DNA of 63,994 nt, filler included, from Archaeoglobus sp. JdFR-37 (GTDB lineage: Archaea; Halobacteriota; Archaeoglobi; Archaeoglobales; Archaeoglobaceae): the NCBI GenBank assembly GCA_002010215.1. It is 4 parts of 4 records of this genome, joined end to end, with 100 filler letters (N's around TTAATTAATTAA, not from the genome) between each part and the next. Parts side by side here need not be neighbours in the genome. Positions count along the whole stretch, not along the records: positions 1 to 22,351 come from MTMY01000048.1; 3 more parts are not named here. One strand, written 5' to 3'. The notes beneath the pieces were generated by a model. That model was not told the origin of the DNA. It made no database searches and saw nothing but the letters and a program-made list of their open reading frames with translations. Positions within the stretch are counted from its first letter, which is position 1; each line of letters opens with the position of its first letter. A program made the position numbers and the translations under genes. Shown one piece after another: positions 19,539 through 22,351 of the stretch.

Positions 19539-20606
19539 TCAGAAATTTTGAAGGTCTTGAAGGTTCTGAAGCTCCACCATTCTCGTTTCATTGAGATAGT
19601 AAACTCTAGCATAAGCGACTCTCCTCCTGAACTCCAAATCCGCAGCAAGCTTATCGAGGAAGTGGACTATGACGTCATTTGACATAAGACTGTAGCATGC
19701 ATTGCAGACACTGTTTCTGATATATTTCTCAGGCAAATGTTGTCCCAGATTACCTTCTTCGATAATTGAGATCAGTTTTTTTGGCCCCCAGATTCTTATG
19801 GCATGGAGGATTGAGTTGAGTTCAGCCCTATCAAATATTTCTTCCAGAGATTTCTCTCTCAAATTTCCCAGCATGAGTGGATGACTGGATTTCAGGTCTA
19901 TTACTGGGCCGATACATGCTATCACTCGCCCATCAGGGAAAATTATAGGGGAGCTACCGGCAGAGCAGGCGGAAATAGGTGGTTTTGTAGTCGTCTGGTA
20001 TTTCAACGCATCAATTTCTTTCAGTGCTCGCCCTGCAGGGAAGGTGATGGCTGTTTTAATCATATTGTCCTCAACTATCTCTCTGAGTTTTTCCAGTATT
20101 TCTTTGTACTCTTCGTCATCCTCATTTTCGGTGCACACGGCTATGTGGTAAGGTATTCTACACGCTTCGGCAGCAAACACTGCATTTTTTACGTTCTCGA
20201 AGGGAATGGATTCCTGATGGTGGACATCGGTGCTGATGGCTAGCATTTTGATTGCAGGTAATCTCCTGAGAACTCTGACTGCTTTCTCCGGTGTTTTTGC
20301 CCAGTAAGCGTTTGTTACTGCTGATACAATCAAACCGCACATCTCTCCGAATTTGGCTATCTTTTCTAGGGTAAACAGGTTGTAAAATGGTTCACCACCC
20401 GTAAGGGAAAGAACCTTGACATAGTCATTTCTATAGCTCGCTATTTGCTGAATCCAGTTAAATGCATCCTGAAGTGTCAGCTCCTCGGTTCTGTGAGGCC
20501 CTGCTTCAAGTATGCAGTGGGGGCAGGTTACCTGGCATTTGTAAGTTATAATAAGCCCAACGTTCCTAAGAAAGGGCATTTCGGGGAGATTATCTTCGTC
20601 CGACAT
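19539..20606 (-). CDS. Radical SAM protein with twitch/SPASM-like domain, EpeE(YydG)-like putative peptide maturase
   Basis: CQVTCPHC, LTGGEPF, TNAYWA, ISTDVHH; auxiliary-cluster Cys in SACS, DGRVIAC, CNAC; AGGAG RBS before ATG 20606. Confidence 0.85.
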   Translation of the reverse strand: MSDEDNLPEMPFLRNVGLIITYKCQVTCPHCILEAGPHRTEELTLQDAFNWIQQIASYRNDYVKVLSLTGGEPFYNLFTLEKIAKFGEMCGLIVSAVTNAYWAKTPEKAVRVLRRLPAIKMLAISTDVHHQESIPFENVKNAVFAAEACRIPYHIAVCTENEDDEEYKEILEKLREIVEDNMIKTAITFPAGRALKEIDALKYQTTTKPPISACSAGSSPIIFPDGRVIACIGPVIDLKSSHPLMLGNLREKSLEEIFDRAELNSILHAIRIWGPKKLISIIEEGNLGQHLPEKYIRNSVCNACYSLMSNDVIVHFLDKLAADLEFRRRVAYARVYYLNETRMVELQNLQDLQNF

Positions 20607-20624
20607 ATTTGATCTCCTGACAAT

Positions 20625-20666
20625 AAATTTCGAAGCCCTACCCGTTTTGGGCAGGATTCGTAATTT
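20625..20666 (-). promoter_or_regulatory. Intergenic stem-loop between peptide gene and radical SAM gene
   Basis: Minus-strand RNA CGAAU-CCUGCCC-AAAAC-GGGUAGG-GC-UUCG with an outer AAAUU/AAUUU pairing. Confidence 0.6.
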
Positions 20667-20687
20667 CAAACGTATTCTCAAATCATC

Positions 20688-20879
20688 TTATCGAAACTCT
20701 CTGGGTACCAGCATGATATCAAAATCATCCCTCAATTTCTTGAGCAGATCGGGTTTTAGCAGGAATTCAGGCACCGGAATGCCGATCACCCATGGATGCC
20801 TTACAACAATTCTTACTTCCTTGTCAAACTCTCTTAAAAGTTCTACCGGAATTCTAATGGATAATTCGCCCCTTTCCAT
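20688..20879 (-). CDS. 63-aa small protein, candidate precursor/substrate of the adjacent radical SAM enzyme
   Basis: MERGELSIRIPVELLREFDKEVRIVVRHPWVIGIPVPEFLLKPDLLKKLRDDFDIMLVPREFR; AGGAGGTGA RBS at 20885-20893; TATA box upstream. Confidence 0.8.
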   Translation of the reverse strand: MERGELSIRIPVELLREFDKEVRIVVRHPWVIGIPVPEFLLKPDLLKKLRDDFDIMLVPREFR

Positions 20880-20924
20880 GAATTTCACCTCCTTTCGGTA
20901 ATACATTCGTTAATTCGTTCTTCT

Positions 20925-20940
20925 TATTTAAATCTTTTTG
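20925..20940 (-). promoter_or_regulatory. Archaeal BRE/TATA promoter of the peptide-radical SAM operon
   Basis: Minus strand CAAAAAGA-TTTAAATA, about 45-55 bp upstream of the peptide ATG. Confidence 0.65.
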
Positions 20941-21049
20941 AATCTATATTAACTACAATCATATGTAACTTATTAGATAGATTATTATATTCGTTGAACT
21001 AAAAGTAATACGCTGAATTGATTCACTATGCTGAAAATCACTTATATTA

Positions 21050-21229
21050 ATGAGGTTCCAGCCTATTGTCAACGCAATAAAAGAAAACAACGGATGGAGA
21101 TCAGATTTATCACCTGAAGAGGCAGCAAGGCGTGTTTTCATGGTTTTTCTGGAGGATTTCAAGCTCGATGTTGTTACTGTAAAAAAGAAGGTTCTCCGTG
21201 TTTTTCCTGAGCTGGAAGGTGTGATATGA
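21050..21229 (+). CDS. 59-aa hypothetical protein, possibly a C-terminal remnant
   Basis: MRFQPIVNAIKENNGWRSDLSPEEAARRVFMVFLEDFKLDVVTVKKKVLRVFPELEGVI*; below the ORF-track length cutoff. Confidence 0.4.
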   Translation: MRFQPIVNAIKENNGWRSDLSPEEAARRVFMVFLEDFKLDVVTVKKKVLRVFPELEGVI

Positions 21230-21248
21230 GTTTAGAGGAGGTGGAAGC

Positions 21249-21377
21249 TTGACCATCCACGAGCTTGCCGAATCCGGAACCTGCCTTTGTGGCGGGAATT
21301 TTGAGGATAGGGGAGACAGGCTGGTTTGTGGGAAGTGCGGTTTGGGGATTTTGCTGGATCCAAAGAGTGATGCCTGA
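21249..21377 (+). CDS. 42-aa zinc-ribbon-like microprotein
   Basis: TTG start after GGAGGTG RBS; MTIHELAESGTCLCGGNFEDRGDRLVCGKCGLGILLDPKSDA* (CxC...CxxC). Confidence 0.6.
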   Translation: MTIHELAESGTCLCGGNFEDRGDRLVCGKCGLGILLDPKSDA

Positions 21378-21389
21378 TGCCGGCTACAT

Positions 21390-21557
21390 TGTGTCCACAT
21401 CCACAGGACCGTTATTGTGGCCACAGTCCAGAGATCTCCCTTTTGTGGTCACAACCTCCTGGTTACTGTGTCCACAGGGTGGACGTCCACCTTGTGTCCA
21501 CAACACCGCAGCTGCTGTTGTGGTCACAGCTCGAGGATCCAGGGTATTGTGTCCACA
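21390..21557. repeat. Array of seven palindromic TGTG-NN-CACA boxes
   Basis: Boxes start at 21390, 21416, 21444, 21467, 21493, 21519, 21548 (periods 26, 28, 23, 26, 26, 29). Confidence 0.9.
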
Positions 21558-21582
21558 ATGGACCTGTGTGGGGGGTTGAACC

Positions 21583-21894
21583 ATGTCCGTGAAGATAGAA
21601 TTTGAGAAGGTCTGGGGAGAGGGCTGGTGGGCGAGAGAGAAGAAGGTGGGAAAGCACAAGTGAAGGCTCAACGGCGGGGAGTACGTCAGCCCTCGCATCG
21701 TTCTCAGCAGCGATTACAACCATTTCATTGGCAAGAACTTCGAGGTTTACCAGGCTAAAGGGACCATTACAAAAGAGGAGTGGAGCCAAACAAGAGAGCG
21801 CACCGGAACCTTCCTGATCCTGTTCTTCCCGGATGTCCAGGTTGAGGAGTTTGAAGATGAGGAGGAGTTCGATGATTTCGATGAAGAATTCTGA
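21583..21894 (+). pseudogene. 103-codon acidic-tailed hypothetical protein with one in-frame TGA at 21661
   Basis: MSVKIEFEKVWGEGWWAREKKVGKHK*RLNGGEYVSPRIVLSSDYNHFIGKNFEVY...EEFEDEEEFDDFDEEF*; protein-like on both sides of the stop. Confidence 0.6.
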
Positions 21895-22183
21895 GGTCCA
21901 TTGTGGTCACATGGAGCTCCCTGTGTCCACAGAGGTTCCAGGAGATTGTGACCACAACAGAGGACCATCAAGGTCTCGATGCAAGGTCTGCCAGAAGGGC
22001 CTCGCAAAGCAGGTTGAGGAGTTGAGGTCCCAGGGTTGCGGGTACAGGACCATCGCCAGGAGGCTGGGATGGAGAGTCAGCTACCAGACAATCAGGAGGC
22101 ACCTGCAGAACTGTAACACACAGTTTGAGGATTCAAGCCCAGTTGGAAGTGGTAAAGAGGTGTTACAGTTTGGGGAGGTCTGA
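21881..22183 (+). CDS. CxxC plus HTH DNA-binding protein of mobile-element type
   Basis: RCKVCQ...ELRSQGCGYRTIARRLGWRVSYQTIRRHLQNC; exact start uncertain. Confidence 0.6.
   Translation: MKNSEVHCGHMELPVSTEVPGDCDHNRGPSRSRCKVCQKGLAKQVEELRSQGCGYRTIARRLGWRVSYQTIRRHLQNCNTQFEDSSPVGSGKEVLQFGEV
21902..21956. repeat. Second cluster of three TGTG-NN-CACA boxes
   Basis: TGTGGTCACA 21902, TGTGTCCACA 21922, TGTGACCACA 21947. Confidence 0.88.
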
Positions 22184-22331
22184 GAGATACAATGGCCCGA
22201 CATTCGAACAGGCCTTCTGGCTCGATGTTGCTGTGATGATTAAGCTCGCCCAGGTGGTCGGGCAGGTTTTAGCTGAGGTGTGGAGAAAGAAGCTGGAGGA
22301 GTTGAGAGAAGATGATGAAGCAAACCCATGA
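22125..22331 (+). CDS. Small hypothetical protein of the element
   Basis: Protein-like C-terminal half (PTFEQAFWLDVAVMIKLAQ...WRKKLEELRE); start uncertain. Confidence 0.4.
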   Translation: MRIQAQLEVVKRCYSLGRSERYNGPTFEQAFWLDVAVMIKLAQVVGQVLAEVWRKKLEELREDDEANP

Positions 22332-22351
22332 GATTCCGGATGTGCTATATA

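Follow-up and report, generated by a model that had tools for sequence, protein, structure and literature searches.

Two genes on the minus strand of an Archaeoglobus contig

The window studied here is a stretch of 63,994 nucleotides, filler included, from Archaeoglobus sp. JdFR-37 (GCA_002010215.1), an archaeon in which the TATA-binding protein is present. On the minus strand of its first contig (positions 1 to 22351) lie an open reading frame (ORF) for a 63-residue protein, hereafter the partner, and, after a spacer of 81 nt, a gene for a radical S-adenosylmethionine (SAM) enzyme similar to EpeE (YydG), the peptide epimerase of Bacillus (Table 1). Together, they form a real and undescribed two-gene module, in which an enzyme devoid of the hydrogen-donating cysteine of EpeE is coupled to a mini-protein with a nearly invariant glycine. 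A preliminary description of this DNA had proposed such a minus-strand unit, and both ORFs, their ribosome-binding sites, and a hairpin between the genes were indeed present.

Close homologues use the same Met as the small ORF, and a 72-residue database version begins at ATG 20906. The pattern of its Shine-Dalgarno sequence, AGGAGGTGA, occurred twice in the window, against 0.11 matches expected. The transcription factor B recognition element (BRE) and TATA box proposed previously were also found; the site is a consensus match, which is no proof of a promoter, and an ad hoc pattern of this type matched the window 11 times, overlapping pairs counted, against 3.1 expected. The intergenic hairpin had a predicted energy of -25.1 kcal/mol (z -3.28), and none of 200 shuffles was equally good. 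Among 57 distinct intergenic spacers tested, 23 had a z below -2. The stem-loop is possibly a transcript stabilizer or an attenuator favoring the small protein. Searching Rfam gave no match.

Table 1. Positions of the module, its signals and flanking DNA in the window, and of the related CC-type systems in their own loci
Feature	Position	Strand	Basis or remark
63-aa partner mini-protein ORF	20879 to 20688	minus	conserved IPxxLLxxF segment, RxV strand, variable loop, G-hydrophobic strand, C-terminal strand ending VPR/K
355-aa radical SAM enzyme, EpeE-like twitch (T-SPASM) domain	20606 to 19539	minus	PF04055, PF13186, TIGR04078, EpeE similarity
Shine-Dalgarno AGGAGGTGA of small ORF	20885..20893	minus	5 nt ahead of ATG
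BRE/TATA-like element CAAAAAG-ATTTAAATA	20925..20940	minus	sequence; putative function
Intergenic stem-loop	20629..20666	minus	between small ORF and enzyme gene
Enzyme ribosome-binding site AGGAG	20614..20618	minus	sequence
Gly33 codon, putative modification site	20781..20783	minus	most conserved partner residue
CxxxCxxC radical-SAM cluster motif (C24, C28, C31)	20514..20537	minus	conservation
C231-I232 codons	19911..19916	minus	aligned to EpeE C222-C223
Accompanying DNA of likely ~3-kb insertion	20941..22351		repeat-rich stretch and weak helix-turn-helix ORF; outside conserved module
CC-type sister systems	L095:1492-3022; L098:823-3645; L096:2528-3175; L090; L099		Tat-like or helical-leader precursors

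Enzyme family, partner family, and their linkage

The enzyme matched PF04055 (E 4.5e-11, 43.6 bits, cutoff 29.5) and PF13186 (E 4.3e-5, 24.2 bits, cutoff 21.5), which places it in the radical SAM superfamily and in its SPASM/twitch subclass. The best NCBIfam model was TIGR04078 (YydG), at 93.1 bits against a curated cutoff of 300; homologues scored 95.5 and 96.6 bits, also below this value. The sole strong sequence matches in the PDB were EpeE structures (E 4.7e-15, residues 14 to 312), in agreement with the resemblance to EpeE noted earlier. In this alignment, from which we counted the EpeE residue numbers used here, EpeE PCCSP faces ACIGP of the enzyme, and the Cys-to-Ala and Asp-to-Ala variants of the deposited EpeE entries align to Ile232 and Ser219. 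PADLOC gave only a generic viperin match over the radical-SAM core.

The Cys triad of the SAM cluster was invariant in all 77 distinct locus enzymes and in the 119 closest database homologues. Four further cysteines, C214, C231, C301, and C304, are the predicted ligands of an auxiliary cluster, as the preliminary description had suspected; they were present in 119/119 close homologues and were kept wherever covered among the locus enzymes. Ile232 occupies the place of Cys223, the hydrogen donor of EpeE, and this replacement, first seen in the window, was confirmed across the family: position 232 was Ile in 73 of 76 locus enzymes (Val, Asn, and Ala once each, Cys never) and Ile in 111, Val in 5, Cys in 2, and Thr in 1 of the 119 database homologues. 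Similarly, the position of EpeE Asp210, which is Ser219 in the window enzyme, was Ser in 59 and Ala in 13 of the 76. Two enzymes of about 68% identity (P0038 and P0054) again have CC at the donor site, together with Phe189Leu and Phe223Leu, and this pair nests within the Ile-type (CI) clade in a FastTree phylogeny. Because Cys is rare at position 232 and the two CC cases are nested, donor loss is, as judged from these sequences, a property of the clade with rare reversion.

Two unusual arrangements were seen among the enzymes. P0013 is a 616-residue protein made of two tandem-fused enzyme copies, whose donor sites read CMG and CIG, and L038 (497-2659) combines two enzyme types in one operon, a long-loop partner being followed by a CIGP enzyme and then directly by a CCGG paralogue.

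Homologues of the small ORF were recovered by word search (7) and by profile search (79 representatives); it belongs to a conserved protein family and is not a chance reading frame. We aligned 129 partners of 60 to 91 residues. Gly33 was conserved in 127 of them, Pro11 in 126, Phe18 in 117, Ile10 in 116, and Arg23 in 114, and in the 60 rows chosen by adjacency to the enzyme, Gly33 was kept throughout. In every case, a hydrophobic residue followed Gly33 (I 28, Y 16, L 9, W 4, V 2, F 1, and M 1 of 61), and the loop ahead of the Gly varied in sequence and length (7 to 16). Any Cys was absent from 116 of the 129 partners.

These counts do not bear out the HPW/GIPVP stretch previously taken as the conserved core. 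His28 and Trp30 were found in only 37 and 40 of the 129 partners, respectively, and what is constant in the family is the Gly-hydrophobic motif. Because both residues are clade specific, a His/Trp cross-link, which had been put forward as an example, cannot be the family reaction. More generally, the enzyme might cross-link a side chain or activate a C-H bond within RHPWVIG, at His28, Trp30, or Ile/Val, or it might link Phe18 or Arg23 to the Gly33 carbon. HPWxxG is retained in the clade nearest the window, Phe18 and Arg23 are widely conserved, and radical SAM enzymes are known to cross-link aromatic and Arg residues. However, the conserved enzyme residues are held in common across partner clades, His28 and Trp30 are not, and Arg23 is missing from 11 of the 60 adjacency-chosen partners, so that such chemistry appears very unlikely to us.

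Conservation of the partner was 0.59 over residues 8 to 18, 0.69 over residues 33 to 37, and 0.52 over residues 53 to 60; it thus extends from end to end, resuming in the C-terminal strand, and no cleavage motif was found. Tandem duplicates and two-copy loci occur naturally. Because of this whole-length conservation and the tandem duplicates, the partner looks, at the sequence level, more like a mini-protein than like the leader/core precursor of a peptide that is ribosomally synthesized and modified posttranslationally (RiPP). 

None of the 129 partners matched a Pfam or NCBIfam family below an E value of 0.01, in line with the earlier statement that no described system was recognized, and a PDB profile search with the partner gave nothing significant. 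The glycyl-radical domain PF01228 was matched by 0/129. A check for RiPP recognition elements (RRE)/PqqD or AbrB/MazE-type proteins gave no profile match, and a weak Atlas lead (0.79) pointed to a cluster with 11% MazE. Looking up the partner in the Atlas otherwise returned unnamed clusters only (0.84 or less) and, for the tandem duplicate, none. AlphaFold2 models were of low confidence for both the partner (predicted local distance difference test [pLDDT] 74, predicted template modeling score [pTM] 0.37) and a natural tandem duplicate (pLDDT 63, pTM 0.39). Fold searches with these models gave no match with Z of at least 2 in one case, a best Z of 2.5 in another, and no Foldseek match with E of 0.001 or less, which demonstrates neither a novel fold nor one already known. 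Fusions of the partner to longer proteins (161 to 2000 aa) were not found, which is weak evidence, and mutual information within the partner was noisy. Pro-rich lead-ins (IGTWPTPEKP and IDTVPLPE) recur at the N termini of many partners (for example, L016, L018, L020, L039, P0005, and P0009) and are repeated in the linkers of partner tandems; no relevant paper was found on them.

Co-occurrence of the two genes had been named beforehand as one of the observations on which the proposal would stand or fall. We examined the best 80 of at least 283 confirmed metagenome loci plus one more (L005), i.e., 81 loci; near-duplicates occur among them, and L007 is in essence the window itself. A partner was found directly upstream of the enzyme in 79 of these with a profile of 129 sequences (A3), partly built from these same ORFs, and in 77 with a noncircular profile of 8 sequences (A1; E 1e-35 to about 2). 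This is the stable linkage of a ribosomal precursor gene to a modifying enzyme that is generally expected of RiPPs. The two loci without a match to A3, L080 and L009, comprise only 15 and about 230 bp upstream. In whole genomes, all four partner finds adjoin an enzyme (G000, G418, G643, and G765). One partner match was obtained in the 79 + 301 genomes scanned for it; G393, G463, G537, and G653 have more distant enzymes only and no partner, and in G385, the enzyme is truncated by the contig end. Enzyme and partner distances were correlated (Mantel rho 0.54, 0/2000 permutations), which common descent alone could produce.

The enzyme was found in 0/95 other genomes of the host's class, in 3/400 genomes of its phylum (one match distant), and in 5/301 genomes of the phylum of G418, distant ones counted. 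Among the named homologues are those of Methanoperedens, Bathyarchaeota, Planctomycetota, and Acidobacteriota. The module is sporadic and spans archaea and bacteria; the label of an archaeal RiPP system, which the archaeal homologues fit, proved too narrow. Clustering of 350 neighbor ORFs revealed no conserved third gene. As expected from the window, no conserved protease, exporter, or RRE was found among them either, and Pfam families on 125 of 185 long neighbors were of unrelated functions. Large secreted peptidases (S8, C25, C1, and pro-kumamolisin) lie near about seven loci (L010, L016, L017, L019, L023, L055, and L085); we did not accept them as part of the module, as families and positions differ among loci. 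Phage records gave no match, and matches to plasmids and viruses were remote, reaching no more than 27% and 34% identity, respectively. Among the mainly open-access papers listed in our literature searches, supplements aside, none dealt with the enzyme-partner pair, and sequence look-ups likewise returned no description.

On its left, the module is flanked by a metallophosphoesterase gene, the phosphatase reported previously. On its right, a weak helix-turn-helix ORF (21833 to 22183) lies inside a repeat-rich stretch (21440 to 21960), in which repeats of the TGTG(A/T)CCACA type occur several times in direct and inverted orientation, including 37-nt arms that are 78% complementary. These elements agree with the mobile-element remnant proposed for this side, a status which they suggest but do not prove. 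The final 70 bp of this contig are found again where two other contigs begin. After position 22351, a run of N's with a short spacer follows, and the DNA beyond is not a true neighbor. The real continuation is given by the near-identical longer contig (L007), which carries tRNA-Glu(TTC) and tRNA-Pro; the tRNA-Glu lies about 225 bp past the contig end and is oriented into the module. In a genome of the same genus, a tRNA-Glu of a different anticodon is located within 130 bp after the phosphatase. Because of this arrangement, module and flanking DNA fit a likely insertion of roughly 3 kb beside a tRNA. We detected no att duplication at the putative insertion.

Possible reactions at the conserved glycine

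The small protein is probably the substrate of the enzyme. Building on the gene coupling, the cofactor motifs, the exchange of Cys223 for Ile, and the invariance of the glycine, we favor a reaction in which Cα-H abstraction at Gly33 or Ile34 is not followed by a thiol quench, and the radical is oxidized to give backbone scission or a −2 Da product. We regard this reading as a serious possibility that still falls somewhat short of an even chance. In a first step, the conserved N-terminal IPxxLLxxF segment would dock on the enzyme. The 5'-deoxyadenosyl radical would then abstract the Cα-H as in EpeE, and the auxiliary cluster, with its four predicted Cys ligands, would take up an electron, leaving an N-acyl imine. 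Since Ile replaces the donor Cys, the radical would be oxidized instead of re-reduced, oxidation by the cluster being the simplest ending. Finally, water addition and backbone scission would yield a C-terminal amide and a glyoxylyl or 2-oxoacyl fragment, or the reaction would end in a −2 Da product; one of these two outcomes is expected because neither a conserved Cys nor any other evident nucleophile is present in the partner. Scission would account for the absent protease, and the product is predicted to remain intracellular.

In the available excerpts of PMC13012085, EpeE has one auxiliary cluster, Cys223 is located on the substrate face opposite SAM, and the substrate sits between SAM and the face formed by Cys223 and the cluster, whose role could not be probed by mutation. 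Mutation of Cys223 led to peptide breakage, according to the accessible text of a review (PMC8326336). In our alignments, an aromatic residue after Gly33 pairs with Gly230 of the enzyme, next to a cluster ligand (20/21 versus 2/39), a hint that the Gly33 loop may enter the active site.

Several observations weigh against this interpretation. The Gly230 covariation comes down to 2 to 4 independent pairs and did not reach significance (p 0.5). According to the same excerpts of PMC13012085, EpeE C223S slows radical quenching yet still yields some epimerized product. Both non-Gly rows among the 129 partners have Cys at position 33; one has a cluster mate with Gly, while the other belongs to a lineage (P0165 and P0210-P0212) in which all four cluster members have Cys. 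Furthermore, two precursors beside the CC-type sisters, relatives of the enzyme that keep the adjacent cysteines, also end in Gly-hydrophobic sequences (VGNIIF and TGYVIY), which resemble GYITF/GYIIF of one partner clade. These endings lower the odds for Gly itself as the target and raise them for Ile34, and Gly33 may be a positioning residue. A structural role of the Gly within a folded subunit would also agree with a partner conserved from end to end. The more specific outcome, that a natural "C223I" descendant of EpeE performs oxygen-independent scission at Gly to release a C-terminal amide and an N-glyoxylyl fragment with no protease, or else forms a stand-alone glycyl radical on a protein of about 65 residues, seems somewhat unlikely to us.

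A further point against oxidation is that 71 of 76 enzymes harbor a spare cysteine, a candidate relocated donor (Cys158 alone in 50, Cys221 alone in 21, both in 0). The enzyme could then still be an epimerase that inverts the hydrophobic residue after Gly33 (Ile34) by means of this cysteine or of a solvent-linked donor, Gly33 letting the backbone fit. The always-hydrophobic residue resembles the Ile/Val targets of EpeE, a different radical SAM enzyme was rescued by placing a Cys close to the substrate (PMC5682303), and the nested pair P0038 and P0054 regained CC. However, the 5 remaining enzymes have neither cysteine and still have a partner, the swap between positions 158 and 221 marks a single clade and thus one event, and the position of EpeE Asp210 is replaced as well. 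Cys158 is also present in CC-type relatives and therefore predates the donor loss, which, together with its occurrence in 51/77 locus enzymes, weakens its candidacy as replacement donor. Overall, we judge epimerization to be distinctly unlikely.

One enzyme has no partner, a further point against our favored reading. In G207, a CIGP enzyme has a 414-residue gene upstream, and no partner was found in this genome of about 90% completeness. The 414-residue protein (L100:6527-8850) has no Pfam family, a THGG motif, by eye a possibly caspase-like fold, and a C-terminal PGPDGRPDGGMLLPE run. Its C terminus (GMLLPE run) was rejected as a partner homologue for want of profile similarity (probability 0.3). 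G207 is in agreement with a different role of the small protein, namely, that of an obligatory folded partner (subunit, chaperone, regulator, or antitoxin-like) of an enzyme acting on something else. Conservation across all segments, natural tandem duplicates, Pro/Asn-Gly loops typical of turns, the lack of processing or export genes, the sporadic distribution, and the insertion beside a tRNA would all suit such a role. On the other hand, EpeE and the CC-type sisters sit with peptide substrates or precursor-like ORFs, no confident fold was predicted for the partner alone or in tandem, and PADLOC gave no match for it. A purely structural turn Gly usually tolerates Asn or Asp, and neither occurs at position 33 in the 129 partners. 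We thus consider this role unlikely.

GrcA is an autonomous glycyl-radical cofactor, and the mini-protein could be a comparable stand-alone carrier if the enzyme installed a persistent glycyl radical at Gly33. The invariant Gly lies in a strand-loop-strand position, and neither the enzyme nor most partners offer a quenching Cys. One partner clade reads VAGY, which resembles the glycyl-radical motif. Glycyl Cα radicals are the favored stable ones in the excerpts of PMC13012085. However, the VAGY-like loop is limited to that clade, partners do not match PF01228, and a glycyl-radical domain was present in just 2/5 enzyme-bearing genomes and in none of the 125 scanned neighbor ORFs. In addition, the 25 best NCBIfam rows for the enzyme include no PflA-type match, and a chain of 63 residues affords little burial. 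A persistent-radical carrier of this kind (compare PMC11528403) is therefore highly improbable in our view.

Returning to oxidation without a thiol quench, the module is in effect a natural counterpart of the EpeE Cys223 mutant, retained across a whole clade, and the undescribed pair is represented by about 130 partner sequences across archaea and bacteria. With two genes, a short soluble-looking partner, and one predicted target position, it offers a direct test of the fate of a peptide Cα radical in the absence of a thiol donor, and it would also test the role of the auxiliary cluster. Scission or amidation at Gly, if true, would add a new reaction to the radical SAM repertoire and might serve as a tool for aldehyde tagging or anaerobic amidation. 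Such a scission would be an anaerobic counterpart of peptidylglycine amidation needing no protease.

Comparison with known systems

The closest known system is EpeE/YydG with its peptide EpeX/YydF, which form the epipeptide of Bacillus subtilis (PDB 8AI1-8AI6; TIGR04078). The window enzyme shares with EpeE sequence similarity over residues 14 to 312, the radical-SAM motif, four Cys aligned to the twitch-domain Cys, the lack of an RRE, and a small gene immediately upstream. Unlike EpeE, it scores 93 bits instead of 300 and has Ile for Cys223 and Ser or Ala for Asp210. The partner forms a family separate from EpeX, with a central invariant Gly and conservation from end to end. EpeX is cleaved and exported according to the excerpts of PMC13012085, whereas the module has no protease or exporter; of the features by which epeXEPAB operons are recognized, a co-encoded protease and ABC (ATP-binding cassette) exporter were not found among the neighbor ORFs, and the partner looks unlike a leader/core precursor. 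Epipeptides are described as restricted to Bacillota in the partly available literature, while the module is found in archaea, Acidobacteriota, and Planctomycetota. We liken the enzyme to an EpeE-type Cα-radical maturase, which it probably works like, although it falls outside EpeE by score, donor Cys, and operon content.

The CC-type sisters (L095, L096/L098, L090, and L099) are 25 to 34% identical to the window enzyme. The nearer ones retain the ALRxxGP motif and the C-terminal helix, and all of the sisters follow a small precursor-like gene; two of these genes encode the Gly-hydrophobic endings mentioned above. Unlike the window enzyme, they keep the adjacent cysteines (ACCGD, ACCNT, PCCGM, and ICCGM), and their precursors are leader/core-like, 130 to 175 residues long, and in some cases start with a Tat-like sequence. 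The sisters are not part of the CI clade (SH-like support 95, FastTree only). One of these systems comprises two radical SAM genes and an ORF that is heme-oxygenase-like by eye, with no NCBIfam match.

PflA-type activases and GrcA would share with the module the abstraction of a Cα-H from an invariant Gly by a radical SAM enzyme, should either the glycyl radical or the Gly branch of our proposal hold. However, the window enzyme belongs to another subfamily, with a twitch auxiliary cluster, and the partner has no PF01228 and no linked glycyl-radical enzyme. Finally, CrpC and CrpA of Methanococcus voltae are, in the accessible part of PMC13692751, a precedent for an archaeal radical SAM enzyme that modifies a neighboring protein and not a short peptide, as we propose here for the partner. 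According to the same source, CrpC differs in having a SPASM domain with two auxiliary clusters and an RRE and in forming thioethers on a Cys-rich substrate, whereas the partners described here are mostly Cys free.

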